From IMG/VR virus record IMGVR_UViG_2718217795_000003: a DNA stretch of 45,060 nt; one strand, 5' to 3'. The DNA comes from a virus. Lineage: Duplodnaviria > Heunggongvirae > Uroviricota > Caudoviricetes. Position numbers and translations under genes: made by a program. The notes under the pieces were generated by a model. It was not told the origin of the DNA. It made no database searches and saw only the letters and a program-made list of their open reading frames with translations. Shown one piece after another: positions 20 to 19,661 of the stretch. Numbering within the stretch: the stretch's first letter is position 1; the number at the start of each line of letters is the position of its first letter.

Positions 20-1315
20 TTAATTTTTCATTGCTTCGCTATGGGGCATGGTTGGGGCAAACTCGCTTAACTGTGTATTTAACAAAGCTACCTGTGCATT
101 ATTGTTTTCAGACATCCATTTTCCGTATACCTGAAATACCATTTGCGCATCTGCATGGCCCATCTGGTTTGCTATAAATGCCGGGTTAGCACCAGCTGTC
201 AGCGACCAGCAGGCATAAGTATGTCTCGACTGATATGATTTTCGATGGCGGAGTCCGGCACGTTTTATCGCTGCGTCCCACATCTGCCTTATTGAGTCAA
301 CGGTAAAATGGTCACCATAATTTTTTACTCTCGCTGACACTTCAGGTTGAAAAACAAAGGTGCATTTTTGTTTTTCTGTTCTGCCATACTCTCTGAGGTG
401 AACATCAATGATATGCTCTTTGCTCAGTCTCGTTAATGTCATCTGACTCCGGAGAGCGTCGATTGCTGGCTTAATAAGATGAATGACCCGATTGGTTCCC
501 GCCTGTGTTTTTGGTACCGTGAAACGGTCTTTTGCTAAATTTCTCCTGATCATCATTGTTCCATTTTTCAGATCTATGTCCTCCCATCCAAGTGCACACA
601 GCTCACCAGGGCGAACGCCAGTATAAACAGAAACACACCATAAATTTTTTGCTTGCTGATTTCTGCACGCATCGATAAGACGGATAAATTCCTCCCGCGA
701 AAGAGGATCCGGAATGGTTCTTGATTCCTTTAATGGCGAGATCCCCTTAAACGGATTATCTGGCAGGTAACCGTTATCAACACCAAACTGGAACACGGCG
801 TTAAGATTTGTCATGTAATTATTTACAGTTACAGCCGATCTCCCTGGTTGTGTAACAATATAGTTACTTTTGGGGATCTGGTATCCAGTCAGTAGCTCTT
901 TACGAACCTCCAGTAATTTTTCTTTATTAATCGATGAGGCAAGATTTTTTTCACCGATTATGCTCAGGATATTTTTGATGACGGCACGGTATGTGTTGAG
1001 TGATGTTTTGGCGACTTCAGTTTCTTTCAGTGCCAGAAATTTTTCAGCCAGTTCTTTTATGGTTAAATCTTGTCGGGCCTCACCAAATTTTTCCAGATTG
1101 CGTGAGGAGGGAAACTGTTTTGCATAGTCGAAAACACCAGTTTTTATTGCGTAACAAACAGAGGAGCGTAGTTCACCTGCAACGCGCCTGTTTTTTGCTG
1201 TGTCAGGAACCCCCAGATTTTCCCTGACTCTTACGCCTTTATAAACAAACCAGATACGTAATTTCCCTCCATGGTTTTCCACGCCTGTCGGATATTTCAT
1301 TTCAACTTCTCTCAT
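20..1315 (-). CDS. int: Phage tyrosine integrase (site-specific recombinase)
   Basis: 431-aa ORF; C-terminal catalytic region with R..HxxR..Y-type residues (..RHTYACWSL..GHADAQMVFQVYGKWM); followed by an excisionase-like gene, typical prophage end. attL would lie left of position 20 and is not resolvable here. Confidence 0.9.
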   Translation of the reverse strand: MREVEMKYPTGVENHGGKLRIWFVYKGVRVRENLGVPDTAKNRRVAGELRSSVCYAIKTGVFDYAKQFPSSRNLEKFGEARQDLTIKELAEKFLALKETEVAKTSLNTYRAVIKNILSIIGEKNLASSINKEKLLEVRKELLTGYQIPKSNYIVTQPGRSAVTVNNYMTNLNAVFQFGVDNGYLPDNPFKGISPLKESRTIPDPLSREEFIRLIDACRNQQAKNLWCVSVYTGVRPGELCALGWEDIDLKNGTMMIRRNLAKDRFTVPKTQAGTNRVIHLIKPAIDALRSQMTLTRLSKEHIIDVHLREYGRTEKQKCTFVFQPEVSARVKNYGDHFTVDSIRQMWDAAIKRAGLRHRKSYQSRHTYACWSLTAGANPAFIANQMGHADAQMVFQVYGKWMSENNNAQVALLNTQLSEFAPTMPHSEAMKN

Positions 1316-4600: not shown

Positions 4601-5086
4601 TATCGCGTCCTCAACAATGAATTTTGTGATGCAGTGCCTGGTGCCTCCAGGTGACGTTAACCAGTTAACAATTAACGCCGGATACAGAGAATCCACCCAT
4701 AACACTGTTTTTGGTTTTAACTGTTCCGCGTGCGCTTAGCCGCATTCACCGCATCACAAAATTCACTTTAAAAACGGCGGCAGAGCAGTCACGGAGTAAA
4801 ACTGATACCGCCAAACACCACCAGAAAATTGATAACAGAGGGCGTTGCAGCGGGGTTGTCACTTAAGCGTATGGTCAACCTGACAACTCGGTGTCCTCAA
4901 CGGGGAAGGAATAACCCCGCCATACTTACCGCCGCGCCATTTTGCGGGCTGCCACAACCGGAAGCGCACGGTCGAATTAAATTTAACGACACCGTACAGT
5001 GAGACGAACTTCGCCGTGCGCTTTCGTGTTGTGTGCCTGCTTTTAACCACGTCAGGCGAGGTGGTATCCTTAAAATCACCACAGTT

Positions 5087-8835: not shown

Positions 8836-10623
8836 TTAAGTCTGAGCCTCACTCTCTTGGCCATAAGTGGCTTGCCAGTATCTCGCCGTAGGGTTCATTA
8901 GAATGTGCAATACAAGCCACCATGCAAAAATGCAGGGAGGTTGGTTGTAGTAACCGGCAGGCACATATCCGTGAGCTAGTTGATTTCGTAAATCACCATA
9001 GATTTTATCTACCAGTAAGGCCTGAAGATTGCCAATTATGTCTACGCCGAAAGCTTCAATAATCAGTGGATTATCTAGTAATCCCTTGAGTCCATTTCGC
9101 TCTTGCGAACCGTCCCCGTGAAGCTGCGATGGTTCCTCACCTTTAATTTTAGCCACATATCTCAGACTATTTTCGAGCTGGGGAATCAACACGTGGCATG
9201 CCGTCATAAAATCTCCATTGAAACCGCAAACCATACCCTTGATGAAAAACTCTTCATGCCCAAACGGGATGAAGGGATGATTGATGAACATATCGCGAAA
9301 AAACGCCTCCGAGATTGGATATTTCATTGTGATCTCATCTGTAGCAGGAATAATTTGCCCAGCTACTGCCAACTCATGGTCGATACGCATTCTCGTCATC
9401 ATTATGGGCCAAATAACTGCCCCATTTGCATCATCAATCCCCAATCCTGCGGGTATGCGAGCAAGTGTCATTCCCTCATGATCAATATGTGTTGATCCAA
9501 ACATCCAAGCTATGCTGTTGGCCTTTTGTTCTATTGCTTGAGCCTTAAGTCTCTCAATGCTGGTTGGCCGACAGACCAGCATCGCAAGTCTGAAAACCAT
9601 ATCAAACAAATCTCTTCCGACTACCCGACTCTTGGCTTGATGGACAATCTCACTAATATCTTGAGGGGGAGACTGAAGGATAGACATCTGGTGACGGGAT
9701 TCGATTTGGTAATCACGCATTTCTTCATACAGCGCAAGACGTTCTATTCGGGTTCCTGGAATATTAGCCAGTGCTTCAATAGCATTCTGCATGCAGGCTG
9801 CCGAAATCATACCGCCATCTTGGAATTTTGACTCTTCCAGATGTGTATCGGCAAGAAGCCGCCAGAATTCAAACTGTGTATCTCTGTCACAGCACCTATT
9901 CGCAATCGGGATTGCGGTTTTACAGGCATCGACGGCAAATGAAAATAATTTTTGAGCCAGATAGTTTTTTGTCAGAAACAGGAGTTCCTGGGCAATAAAA
10001 GATGGCTCACTCACTTTACAGTCGATATCGAGTTGCAGGAGTCGCAGCGGATAAGGTGAATCGCCTTGTTCTCTGGTACGTTCATACTCTGCTAGTAGAT
10101 GTGCCGAAAGCTGATCAAATTCATCCCTGAAATCAGTATGCTTTCGAAAAAAACAACACAGCCTAAGCGCACGCTCTAGGCGTTCTAAAGCACTAACCCA
10201 CGTCCCTTGCGATGTCATAATAGCTATACTGGACGCATAATAAGCACGGACTGCCAGCAAAGGAAAACGGATTCCACCAATTTTACGAACCCAAAGTGTA
10301 TCAGCAATACGAGCTTGAAGTTCGGGTAGCTCTATCGTCGGGCAAAATTGAGAAAGTACCTCCAGCGACAACCCGTTAATGTCATCCGGAATTGCAGATC
10401 TACCTTGGCTGCTTTGAAAGCACGGACCAAATGGTACCTGTGGATTTTCGGGACGAAAGTGAAAACCGCAAATATGGGTTAGCAGTCTTATCTCCGCTCT
10501 TCCATCACCTAGGCTAGAAAGATACTTTGTGATATCAAAGCAGGTAACTGGCAGCTTACTCTGGATTAAGGGGGATAAATCAATAGTGTTAAGTTCGTCG
10601 AGGCTGATATTAATATCGTCCAT
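8836..10623 (-). CDS. Orphan 595-aa protein with C-terminal Rx4H (HEPN-like) motif; candidate defence/abortive-infection effector
   Basis: Long uninterrupted ORF opposite to flanking genes in an AT-richer block; no Walker A motif; motif DLRNQLAHGY (R546..H551, coordinates 8971-8988) about 45 aa from the C-terminus; flanked by 218 bp and about 670 bp of non-coding DNA. Confidence 0.8.
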   Translation of the reverse strand: MDDINISLDELNTIDLSPLIQSKLPVTCFDITKYLSSLGDGRAEIRLLTHICGFHFRPENPQVPFGPCFQSSQGRSAIPDDINGLSLEVLSQFCPTIELPELQARIADTLWVRKIGGIRFPLLAVRAYYASSIAIMTSQGTWVSALERLERALRLCCFFRKHTDFRDEFDQLSAHLLAEYERTREQGDSPYPLRLLQLDIDCKVSEPSFIAQELLFLTKNYLAQKLFSFAVDACKTAIPIANRCCDRDTQFEFWRLLADTHLEESKFQDGGMISAACMQNAIEALANIPGTRIERLALYEEMRDYQIESRHQMSILQSPPQDISEIVHQAKSRVVGRDLFDMVFRLAMLVCRPTSIERLKAQAIEQKANSIAWMFGSTHIDHEGMTLARIPAGLGIDDANGAVIWPIMMTRMRIDHELAVAGQIIPATDEITMKYPISEAFFRDMFINHPFIPFGHEEFFIKGMVCGFNGDFMTACHVLIPQLENSLRYVAKIKGEEPSQLHGDGSQERNGLKGLLDNPLIIEAFGVDIIGNLQALLVDKIYGDLRNQLAHGYVPAGYYNQPPCIFAWWLVLHILMNPTARYWQATYGQESEAQT

Positions 10624-10996
10624 GTCGTCACCTTGATGATTTGTTAATGCGGGGGCAACATTAATAAATGTACTTGAGACCGCAATTTGTCGATGGAGCC
10701 AACATTTATAACTATGTGCTTCTACCCTCTGAATTTTTACATGTGAATTGCTAGCTTGAATAGCTCTATCATTATATACGTGGCACTAAATTATGGCTGT
10801 TTTTCGCTCAAAGCGGACTAGAAGGTTAGCTTGTGTCGGACTTTGCGTATTAAAAGAAGTGCTGGTGGTGACTAGTGGTTGTGCCCCATTTCCACAGAAA
10901 AAATCAGAGAAACTATACCCAATAGTTGTATTGAATCACTGACGAGACAGCCTCATATTCATCAGGACTGGTCTACGTCCAATACAGGAGGTTGTG

Positions 10997-11086
10997 GTGC
11001 TGGTTCTCAAATGTGCGCTGGCTATTACGGCTGTAATGGCGATTTATTGTCTTGCTATTGTTCTTATGGATCGCCTTTCTGACTGA
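10997..11086 (+). CDS. Candidate small hydrophobic peptide (29 aa, GTG start) resembling type I toxin / small membrane protein
   Basis: AGGAGG at 10986-10991, GTG at 10997, ORF M-LVLKCALAITAVMAIYCLAIVLMDRLSD, stop 11084-11086; one predicted TM helix plus charged tail. Not in the ORF track (too short). Confidence 0.3.
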   Translation: MLVLKCALAITAVMAIYCLAIVLMDRLSD

Positions 11087-11297
11087 TTTCACATTGGCGA
11101 GGTAACGGTAGTTAAGTAGAATGGCTGCGGGTGCTTGAGGCTATCTGCCTCGGGCATGAACACCAACGGCAGATAGAGAAAAGCCCCAGTTAACATTACG
11201 CGTCCTGCAAGACGCTTAACATTAATCTGAGGCCAATTTCATGCTAGACATATGTAGGTTAGCCTCTTACGTGCCGAAAGGCAAGGAGAAGCAGGCT

Positions 11298-11453
11298 ATG
11301 AAGCAGCAAAAGGCGATGTTAATCGCCCTGATCGTCATCTGTTTAACCGTCATAGTGACGGCACTGGTAACGAGGAAAGACCTCTGCGAGGTACGAATCC
11401 GAACCGGGCAGACGGAGGTCGCTGTCTTCACAGCTTACGAACCTGAGGAGTAA
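11298..11453 (+). CDS. hok: Hok/Gef-family type I toxin
   Basis: 51-aa product MKQQKAMLIALIVICLTVIVTALVTRKDLCEVRIRTGQTEVAVFTAYEPEE is a canonical Hok family sequence (recalled as HokD/RelF-like); AAGGAG RBS; in-frame upstream extension from 11241 corresponds to the leader/mok region. Confidence 0.85.
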   Translation: MKQQKAMLIALIVICLTVIVTALVTRKDLCEVRIRTGQTEVAVFTAYEPEE

Positions 11454-11522
11454 GAGACCCGGCGAGGGAGAAATCCCTCGCCACCTCTGATGTGGCAGGC
11501 ATCCTCAACGCACCCGCACTTA

Positions 11523-11548
11523 ACCCGCTTCGGCGGGTTTTTGTTTTT
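11523..11548 (+). terminator. Rho-independent terminator after hok
   Basis: ACCCGC-TTCG-GCGGGT hairpin followed by a T-run; a second strong hairpin GGCGAGGGA/TCCCTCGCC lies at about 11461-11482. Confidence 0.6.
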
Positions 11549-11669
11549 ATTTTCAACGCGTTTGAAGTTCTGGACGGTGCCGGAATAGAATCAAAAATAC
11601 TTAAGTAGCGCGCAGGGATAAGAGGGATGGTCCCTTAAAGGGGAGAGCTAATTATCCGGAAGGATTCTG

Positions 11670-11921
11670 ATGATGAACATCGAAGAACTGCGTAAAAATT
11701 TTTGTGAAGATGGCCTCTATGCTGTGTGCGTTGAAAATGGAAATCTTGTTAGTCATTACCGCATTATGTGTTTGCGAAAGAATGGGGCTGCGTTAATTAA
11801 TTTTGTGGATGGTCGAGTGACAGACGGATTTATCTTGCGCGAAGGTGAGTTTGTCACTTCATTACAGGCACTGAAAGAGATCGGAATAAAAGCAGGCTTT
11901 TCAGCTTTTGCAGAAGAATAA
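11670..11921 (+). CDS. Small prophage protein (Rem-like, 83 aa)
   Basis: ATG with GGAAGGA upstream; sequence recalled as similar to the Qin rem product; function unknown. Confidence 0.5.
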   Translation: MMNIEELRKNFCEDGLYAVCVENGNLVSHYRIMCLRKNGAALINFVDGRVTDGFILREGEFVTSLQALKEIGIKAGFSAFAEE

Positions 11922-18886: not shown

Positions 18887-19249
18887 ATTAATATTAAATC
18901 GGATTATTTTTAGCGCTGAATGTGAAATTTAAATAAAAAGGACTCTTCCATGAGTCAAAATCCTTGAAATCTTAAGGGTAAGATAAAAGATCATTAGACA
19001 GAATGACACGTTTTATTAATAAATAAAGCTATTGTTTCATTCGTGTGTTTTTCTTTACAAAAGTAATCCTTGCTATGGTTGGTTAATCATGCGTTAATGG
19101 TGTTCTGGTTTGTTACAAAATTATCTGAAGCAGTCATTGTTATAATTTTATTATTTGTACCTCTTGAGATTTCCTTGTTGGTTTTTCTCTCTGATATTTT
19201 TTTTCGGACCATTCTGCCCAAGGGCTAACTTCTTCAAAAGGTAATAATG

Positions 19250-19462
19250 ATGTCTAACAAAATGACTGGTTTAGTGAAATGGTTTAACCCTGAAAAAGGT
19301 TTTGGTTTCATCACGCCGAAAGATGGTAGCAAAGATGTGTTTGTCCATTTCTCAGCTATTCAGAGCAACGATTTCAAAACGTTAACTGAGAATCAGGAAG
19401 TCGAATTTGGTATTGAGAACGGACCTAAAGGCCCCGCGGCTGTTCATGTTGTGGCACTTTGA
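19250..19462 (+). CDS. cspI: Cold-shock protein CspA family (CspI-like)
   Basis: [38 protein letters not shown]...; long AT-rich 5' leader (about 18890-19246) typical of cold-shock genes. Confidence 0.9.
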
Positions 19463-19661
19463 GGTAGAAAATATTACAAACCATATTCACTTTAGATGCC
19501 CGTGTTGCCATGGTTCTCAGTATAGAACATCATCTTTTGATGTTTCTGACAGGAATCCTTTCGGGGCAAAATGTATCTTTTGTAAATCAATGATGATTAC
19601 ATTTGATAATATTTCACAATACTTAAATGTTAGCCGTCTATCGTTAGATTTAAGAAAGTGA
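19446..19661 (+). CDS. Small Cys-rich protein (YdfK/YnaE-like cold-shock-associated prophage protein)
   Basis: 71-aa ORF with CPCCHG...CIFCKS motifs directly after csp, followed by a strong terminator; start position uncertain. Confidence 0.45.

Follow-up and report, generated by a model that had tools for sequence, protein, structure and literature searches.

The hok/sok locus (parB) of plasmid R1, which has a proven role in post-segregational killing, is made up of an ordered set of elements: tac, ucb, a GAGG Shine-Dalgarno (SD) sequence for mok (PMC9841398), dcb, the hok SD, a 3' protective hairpin and fbi, with the Sok RNA antisense to the mok start. Among characterised loci, the closest to the one described here is hokW/mokW/sokW of the Stx2 phages 933W and Sp5 (VT2-Sakai), whose annotation dates back to the 933W record (AF125520) and whose function was tested by Takada et al. 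in 2021 (PMC8621323). These authors showed experimentally that hokW-sokW is a toxin with an RNA antitoxin, probed sokW on the minus strand, and reported that HokW shares 44% with R1 Hok. Replacement of TAGGTTA, the complement of TAACCTA, in hokW-sokW using primers YO-421/422 gave a 'pro-less' mutant in which antitoxin activity against HokW was lost, and protection returned when sokW was supplied in trans. After mitomycin C treatment, the sokW RNA of Sp5 disappeared and HokW was found in the inner membrane, in a RecA-dependent manner, and without hokW-sokW the phage yield was halved, Hok aiding lysis. On the E. coli chromosome, hokC/mokC/sokC (gef) also has an in-frame Mok of 69-70 aa, and the intact hokA, hokB and hokC loci are reported to be without post-segregational killing, as summarised in bioRxiv 10.1101/2025.08.07.668861. 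The same preprint describes the HokD peptide as toxic on expression.

The window analysed here, a 45,060-nt stretch of viral DNA (IMG/VR record IMGVR_UViG_2718217795_000003), is a lambdoid E. coli prophage belonging to the Qin family. Its early-right region very probably carries as cargo a complete type I toxin–antitoxin module, hok/mok/sok, which is of hokD/hokW type (Table 1). An earlier note, made from the DNA letters alone, had proposed a type I toxin locus of the Hok family whose mRNA is folded and includes a leader ORF, and Pfam, Rfam and RNA folding all bear this out. Its extent of 11150-11550 takes in most of the locus but begins 21 nt into the mRNA, so that the hok promoter and tac are left out. 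Going beyond that note, the comparisons show that the locus is the complete and common form of the module, not an unusual variant; it is an ordinary, very common and already known element.

The hok-frame product matches the Pfam HOK_GEF family over all 42 model positions with a score of 82.9 bits (cut-off 22), which places it among the Hok/Gef toxins, a family of proteins of about 50 aa that have an N-terminal transmembrane helix and a conserved C-terminal part. The NCBIfam Hok models scored 48.5 against a curated cut-off of 73 and were not used for naming. RefSeq genomes with 100%-identical DNA have the gene annotated as hokD, and the protein is the same as K-12 HokD, the sole coding difference being synonymous. 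PGAP annotation of the locus is confined to the hok CDS, with neither mok nor sok labelled, and a literature search for 'sokD' returned only unrelated matches. Just upstream, a 30-aa ORF (10994-11086) had no match in Pfam, PADLOC or NCBIfam.

An upstream mok frame with its own SD overlaps hok and ends at the same stop codon. Its length and layout are those of the annotated mokW of 933W, with an identical position relative to hok, and K-12 mokC is laid out in the same way. Its SD motif is the same as that of R1 mok. By homology, translation of hok is probably coupled to that of mok.

Table 1. Features of the hok/mok/sok locus in the window (MFE, minimum free energy fold; positions on the minus strand are given in the direction of transcription).
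Feature	Position	Strand	Details
hok mRNA promoter-like site	11094-11122	+	TTGGCG, 17-nt spacer, TAGAAT; consensus scan
Full-length hok mRNA	~11129-11548	+	420 nt; both ends predicted
tac (translational activator)	11129-11140	+	GGGUGCUUGAGG; pairs with 11503-11515 in full-length MFE
ucb (anti-SD box)	11183-11189	+	GCCCCAG; pairs with mok SD region 11227-11233 in full-length MFE
Sok-target hairpin	11190-11226	+	Between ucb and mok SD
mok Shine-Dalgarno	11229-11232	+	GAGG; 8 nt 5' of mok ATG; read from the sequence
mok ORF	11241-11453	+	ATG at 11241; 70 codons; in frame with hok; stop codon common to both
dcb (downstream complementary box)	11262-11266	+	GCCUC; pairs with GAGGC 11229-11233 with the tac/ucb stem enforced and the RNA truncated at 11495
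hok Shine-Dalgarno	11283-11288	+	AAGGAG; 9 nt 5' of hok ATG; read from the sequence
hok toxin gene	11298-11453	+	51 aa, MKQQKAMLIALIVICLTVIVTALVTRKDLCEVRIRTGQTEVAVFTAYEPEE; PF01848, E 1.2e-23; PGAP name hokD
G+C-rich 3' hairpin	11461-11482	+	9 bp; seen in MFE; likely 3' end protector of processed mRNA
fbi (fold-back inhibition)	11503-11515	+	CCUCAACGCACCC; pairs with tac, C11509 bulged
Intrinsic terminator of hok mRNA	11522-11548	+	Hairpin 11522-11539, then T run; terminator scan
Predicted Sok antisense RNA	11249->11179	-	~71 nt; coordinates from the sokW misc_RNA of AF125520
Sok promoter	11284->11256	-	-35 TTGCCT (11284->11279), 17-nt spacer, -10 TAACCT (11261->11256)

Overall, the hokW locus of 933W has 92% identity with the window locus, rising to about 96% over the stretch that begins with the hok -10 box and ends with fbi. 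Its architecture and lengths are equal to those found here (mok 213 nt, hok 156 nt, Sok about 71 nt), and its annotated features map directly, with sokW at 11249->11179 (-), mokW starting at 11241 and hokW at 11298-11453. The tac, ucb and fbi elements, both SD boxes, the Sok promoter with its TAACCT box and the hok -10 box TAGAAT are identical in the two. Both loci lie in lambdoid prophages, although their genome positions and neighbouring genes differ. The remaining differences are at the Mok start (MLDIC in the window, MLNTC in 933W), in the Hok C-terminus (FTAYEPEE in the window, FVDYESEK in HokW, the two proteins being 90% identical), in the 3' hairpin, where the changes are compensatory, and in the terminator, which is unrelated. 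In addition, 7 of the 22 nt covering the Sok 5' tail and mok codons 2-4 differ. As Sok lies opposite the target that it recognises, this last difference bears only on cross-reaction.

The elements of R1 hok/sok recur here in the same order, with Sok antisense to the mok start and with the same fit to Rfam and the same fold-back logic. The R1 tac and fbi (GGCGCUU/AAGCGCC) differ from those of the window by compensatory changes, the Sok-target hairpin is longer in the window than in the R1-type copy, and the R1 locus is plasmid-borne whereas this one is in a prophage. The Hok proteins of the two are only distantly related, to judge from the 44% that HokW, close to the Hok of the window, shares with R1 Hok. 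The hokC locus is more distant, with about 75% nucleotide identity; its leader aligns over the full length but is without an 18-nt hairpin extension found here, and its Sok -10 region reads ACTCT. In K-12, an IS186 element just downstream of hokC removes fbi. As the earlier note had proposed, alignment to characterised hok/sok loci was used in placing the antisense promoter (from sokW and sokC). Of the position numbers published for R1 (PMC9841398), only those for tac and ucb were transferred. G4-T6 and A70-C72 fit the R1-type plasmid copy that was fetched but G105/A106 were 5 nt off, which suggests an indel between this copy and the R1 construct.

An antisense Sok-like RNA had been expected at about 11180-11300, and this was close. 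Transfer from sokW gives the RNA and promoter listed in Table 1, and the annotated K-12 sokC aligns there, its start corresponding to the homologous G at 11249. The first 15 nt of the predicted RNA (11249->11235) form a single-stranded 5' tail with complementarity to the region of the mok start; the long hairpin that follows (11234->11182) leads into a U tail. The Sok strand folds at -30.5 kcal/mol (z -5.5), compared with -19.9 kcal/mol for the complementary sense segment. Support for the strand also comes from 37 non-identical hok leaders from Escherichia, Kluyvera, Photorhabdus, Pantoea, Citrobacter, K-12 and an R1-type plasmid, in which several of the hairpin pairs switch between A-U and G-C. 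Read on the Sok strand, 96.3% of the hairpin pairs are canonical with 69 G-U cells, whereas the same hairpin read on the mRNA strand is 80.7% canonical with one G-U cell. This asymmetry between G-U and A-C is independent evidence that a minus-strand RNA is the structure under selection.

The hexamers of the Sok promoter are weak, matching the consensus at four of six positions (TTGCCT) and three of six (TAACCT). A generic sigma-70 consensus scan of the minus strand found no promoter, the Sok site falling below its threshold, and the site was placed through homology to sokW and sokC and through the published promoter mutation. The -10 box found here, six nucleotides of spacing before G11249, is the box validated by mutation in sokW, and the window and 933W have the same 47 nt at 11254-11300. 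In most of the 37 loci, the hokC-type group excepted, the -35 box keeps its TTG and the -10 box its T-A...T. Promoter, 5' tail, hairpin and U tail of a cis-encoded antisense Sok are thus all recognisable in the DNA, which is the level at which the assignment is made.

The 5' end of the hok mRNA was placed 7 nt past the -10 box, which coincides with position 1 of the Rfam model at 11129, and the 3' end was placed from the T run of the terminator. The leader (11129-11303) matches RF01794 over its full length on the plus strand with 112.7 bits (gathering score 59, E 5.6e-25), and the 420-nt RNA has an MFE of -172.1 kcal/mol (z = -6.8 relative to dinucleotide-shuffled sequences). In a comparison of more than 50 hok loci, homology begins at 11108-11121 and ends at 11515, so the hok -10 box and fbi form the two ends of the conserved unit; the terminator lies outside it and is not conserved between the window and 933W. 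Strong 3' hairpins, described in the earlier note, were found at 11461-11482 and 11522-11539. By analogy with the 3' stem-loop of R1 (PMC9841398), the former is likely to protect the 3' end of the processed mRNA.

In the full-length mRNA the two ends are joined by 12 tac-fbi pairs (duplex -21.5 kcal/mol), and the mok SD is sequestered by ucb, a closed form which has been described for R1 hok mRNA (PMC9841398). The long-range pairing is backed by compensatory changes at tac positions 4, 11 and 12 among Escherichia, Kluyvera, Photorhabdus and Citrobacter loci. Photorhabdus and Pantoea have C4-G in place of the U4-A pair, Citrobacter youngae has A11-U for G11-C, and Kluyvera and Photorhabdus have A12-U for G12-C. 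In 58 distinct mRNAs, each coding for the identical 51-aa Hok, tac is invariant and ucb and fbi are invariant or nearly so, as both SD boxes are in the alignments. The ucb box corresponds to A70-G71-C72 of the R1-type sequence. Its partner is tac both in the consensus structure of Rfam and in a second, 'open' fold; pairing of the SD with dcb also belongs to the consensus structure, as in the R1 model, and was seen in the open form with the RNA trimmed to 11495. Compared with the Rfam consensus, the Sok-target hairpin is longer by 18 nt (about 11199-11216), which appear as an insertion in the alignment. This extension is common to hokD/hokW-type and Kluyvera loci and carries compensatory changes.

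Constrained folding places the open tac/ucb conformer 13.2 kcal/mol above the MFE in the full-length RNA and only 1.1 to 1.3 kcal/mol above it after 3' trimming to 11495-11502. Spontaneous release of the mok SD in 3'-truncated mRNAs was expected and did not occur in the predictions, as the MFE keeps the SD paired with ucb. After truncation the open form is therefore near-isoenergetic and not favoured when constrained and unconstrained folding are compared. In the unconstrained MFE of the trimmed RNAs, tac is taken up in a local 5' hairpin which resembles the metastable structure reported for R1. Both the closed pairing (ucb-SD) and the open pairings (tac-ucb with SD-dcb) can be formed, and a truncation-driven switch between them is energetically plausible in these models, but not proven.

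The prophage shares synteny blocks with K-12 Qin at int, dicB/dicF, dicC, hokD-rem-ydfU and essQ-rrrQ-rzpQ-cspI. In both, hok holds the same position, upstream of rem-ydfU-Q and by the dicB/dicF region. K-12 Qin lies beside rspB, and a 541-nt query from the window has a 100%-identical counterpart in the chromosome of strain CFSAN061763, in which the prophage is likewise integrated beside rspB. The K-12 hokD (relF) segment is 99.3% identical to 11284-11700 of the window and encodes an identical Hok. Homology across the K-12 relE-hokD region starts only at 11284, 14 nt before the hok ATG; upstream of this point the sequences are unrelated and K-12 has the end of relE, which stops 71 nt before hokD. 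K-12 hokD has kept the hok SD, the ORF and the 3' UTR but is without promoter, tac, ucb, mok start and Sok gene, and of the Sok promoter only the first T of the -35 box remains. That relBE adjoins hokD in Qin and is absent here had been stated in the earlier note, and alignment and tblastn confirm it. Searches with relB, relE, ydfV and flxA gave no tblastn match with E < 1 in the whole 45-kb window, and the K-12 type of relBE-hokD operon does not occur in it. In place of relBE, ydfV and flxA the window has replication genes, a PDC-S39 candidate defence gene and the full hok leader.

A leader of the window type (at least 80% query coverage) is present in 4286 of 5426 complete E. coli genomes (79%), at a median of two and up to nine places per genome, a count that may take in paralogous loci down to about 85% identity. 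The relE-hokD junction is found in 1167 of these genomes (21.5%). The K-12 relBE-hokD arrangement is a derived, minority and truncated one in which the whole RNA control region has been replaced, and K-12 hokD is therefore a poor model for the gene as usually found. Since identical DNA is annotated as hokD in thousands of E. coli genomes, the locus has little weight as a discovery.

By homology with the characterised loci, both RNAs would be transcribed, the mRNA processed at its 3' end, hok translation coupled to that of mok and the antisense duplex cleaved by RNase III. The modest promoter upstream of tac would give rise to an mRNA of about 420 nt that is translationally silent at full length, with tac paired to fbi and the mok ribosome-binding site held by ucb. 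Slow 3' trimming, to a predicted new end somewhere within 11483-11502 and a length of about 380 nt, would remove fbi, allowing tac to take ucb and freeing the mok ribosome-binding site, and translation of mok from 11241 would bring ribosomes into hok at 11298 to make a 51-aa membrane-depolarising peptide. A short, unstable Sok, made from the promoter that overlaps the hok SD region, would use its 5' tail to pair with the processed mRNA around the mok start, blocking mok/hok translation and marking the duplex for RNase III. Should Sok synthesis stop, the pool of stable mRNA would be translated into Hok; prophage induction, loss of the element or a shut-off of transcription are possible causes. 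Sense read-through from the early-right region, shutting the convergent Sok promoter by transcriptional interference, could explain the RecA-dependent disappearance of sokW. For the biological role, hokW-sokW would by analogy be the best guide, and prophage retention or defence against other phages are possible roles. The report that intact hokA, hokB and hokC do not mediate post-segregational killing makes the role of this locus uncertain.

The same report invites the view that the locus is an intact-looking but inert copy which hitch-hikes in the prophage with neither killing nor benefit, as has been proposed for hokA, hokB and hokC. K-12 does tolerate its hokD stump without any sok, and the predicted truncated mRNA has no clear preference for the open form. 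We nevertheless consider an inert copy improbable, and the outcome of an inactive relic, which the earlier note had allowed for, is unsupported. Every control element is present and intact in the sequence, and these elements are invariant or covary across dozens of loci. The identical 51-aa peptide is encoded by at least 80 IMG/VR viral contigs, 77 of which have an intact leader upstream (two have the relE junction and one has other sequence), and a locus 99.8% identical, annotated 'MokW protein', is carried by the sequenced temperate phage mEp460_ev081. The toxicity of the HokD peptide and the activity of the close allele hokW-sokW, which raises phage yield, also speak against inertness. A somewhat less probable reading is that hok is expressed mainly from long early-right transcripts as an accessory lysis gene, with the hok/sok RNA switch idle, much as K-12 hokD lies on the relBE transcript. 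It would suit the orientation of hok, which is the same as that of the dicC, replication and Q early-right genes, the production of HokW after RecA-dependent induction, and the retention of hokD in K-12 after loss of its own promoter and leader. A passenger ORF, however, would have no need of the promoter, tac, fbi and Sok that are so strongly conserved here, a gene on the opposite strand (8836-10623) cuts hok off from the early genes upstream, and in hokW-sokW mutation of the sokW promoter by itself unleashes toxicity.

The Rfam 'sok' match on the plus strand could be taken to mean that the regulatory RNA is made from that strand and that the minus strand has no functional RNA. The K-12 match to RF01794 falls on the strand of the hokC mRNA, with the annotated sokC on the other strand. 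Since the model finishes in the hok AUG, what it represents is the sense-direction hok leader; the plus-strand match was accordingly rejected as an antitoxin gene. Together with the pairing of the hairpin that is maintained on the minus strand, and with sokW being both annotated and probed there, the sequence comparisons refute a plus-strand regulator, to which we attach a negligible probability. Because the Rfam 'sok' family reports the hok-mRNA strand and not the Sok strand, it can mislead strand assignment.

The one less familiar point of the locus is the hypervariability of the Sok tail beside an identical toxin, of which a non-systematic look at the hok/sok literature found no mention. 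We propose, tentatively and at slightly less than even odds, that the Sok 5' tail and its target (11235-11249) are under diversifying or mosaic evolution while the toxin and the structural switches are frozen, with control of each copy separately as the benefit. If so, co-resident prophage copies of the hokD/hokW type would each be held by their own Sok only, and a prophage that is lost or induced would set off its own Hok and no other. A variable tail beside a frozen toxin would in any case provide a natural data set on antisense specificity among co-resident type I systems. Across the 58 mRNAs the mean entropy is 0.13 bit per site, with 0.00 bit in tac, 0.017 bit in the hok CDS and 0.03 bit in fbi. 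The 15 nt of the tail and its target reach 0.83 bit per site and occur in at least 12 sequence variants, a pattern that fits diversification of antisense specificity. The leaders of the window and 933W likewise differ almost exclusively in the Sok-tail segment. Different tails also occur on distinct loci of a single assembly, as in ECMA0423 (L009 and L017), and within S. flexneri SFBU1023 (L012, L014 and L018).

Among 58 distinct hok mRNAs, all encoding the same 51-aa Hok, the segment that holds the 5' tail of the predicted antisense RNA Sok and the mok start region (11235-11249) shows 0.83 bit per site compared with a mean of 0.13, and occurs in at least 12 variants. The control elements flanking this hypervariable tail are, in contrast, invariant. 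The closest characterised locus, hokW/mokW/sokW of the Stx2 phage 933W (AF125520), differs from the window at 7 of 22 nt across the Sok tail and mok start. The Sok tail may be hypervariable because co-resident copies have diversified in their antisense specificity.

The hairpin formed by Sok and its target carries an 18-nt extension (11199-11216) relative to the Rfam consensus. Loci of the hokD/hokW type and several from Kluyvera share the extension and show compensatory changes in it; loci of the hokC type, of the R1 type and from Photorhabdus lack it. Because of this extension the predicted Sok is about 71 nt long, whereas K-12 sokC is annotated as 59 nt. The Rfam model RF01794, labelled 'sok antitoxin', matches the window at 11129-11303 (+) and L003, a K-12 sequence with hokC/sokC, at 502-654 (-); in K-12 the match falls on the strand opposite to the annotated sokC. 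RF01794 is a sense-direction model of the hok mRNA leader, and strand calls based on it are therefore inverted relative to the real Sok gene.

Within hok, the Tyr47 codon UAC (11436-11438) lies inside UUACGAA, and its UACG context resembles the tRNA-Arg anticodon loop. A-to-I editing by TadA at such sites, which recodes Tyr to Cys, is reported for hokB, hokC, hokD and hokE (bioRxiv 10.1101/2025.08.07.668861). The corresponding context in 933W is CUACGAA, flanked by a 4-bp stem.

Features around hok and elsewhere in the prophage
Feature	Coordinates	Strand	Details
DicF sRNA, full-length	4775-4826	-	72.2 bits
PDC-S39-type protein, 595 aa	8836-10623	-	DUF7380 + DUF4209 domains; PADLOC match
Unannotated hydrophobic-peptide ORF, 30 codons	10994-11086	+	product VLVLKCALAITAVMAIYCLAIVLMDRLSD
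Promoter-like site TTGAAG-18-TAGAAT	11562-11591	+	between hok terminator and rem
cspA-type thermoregulator leader + cold-shock gene	19092-19508	+	109.8 bits; gene is cspI by synteny

The gene that directly precedes hok lies on the opposite strand, and its product matches PDC-S39, a candidate defence family of PADLOC, with E 2.9e-102. The place of this gene is occupied by ydfX/ydfW/flxA/ydfV/relBE in K-12 Qin and by another gene in phage mEp460, and the site looks like a cargo hot spot. The 30-codon ORF has AGGAGG, 5 nt and then a GTG start; it is also open in L060, a contig of a metagenome-assembled genome, despite amino-acid and synonymous changes, and the portion examined of a further comparison sequence, L061, is identical to the window there. 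Its peptide had no family match in Pfam, PADLOC or NCBIfam, and is possibly a small membrane protein. Directly past the hok terminator, the promoter-like site upstream of rem (11670-11921) suggests that rem has a promoter of its own. Further away, DicF and the cspA-type leader with its cold-shock gene are typical cargo of the Qin family.

Copies of the E. coli prophage hok locus, 89-96% identical, were also found on very short contigs of non-enterobacterial assemblies, namely Acinetobacter idrijaensis (L022, 275 nt), Xanthomonas pisi (L027, 431 nt) and the 'Candidatus Scatousia' MAG (L060, 2995 nt), and are most likely assembly contamination.
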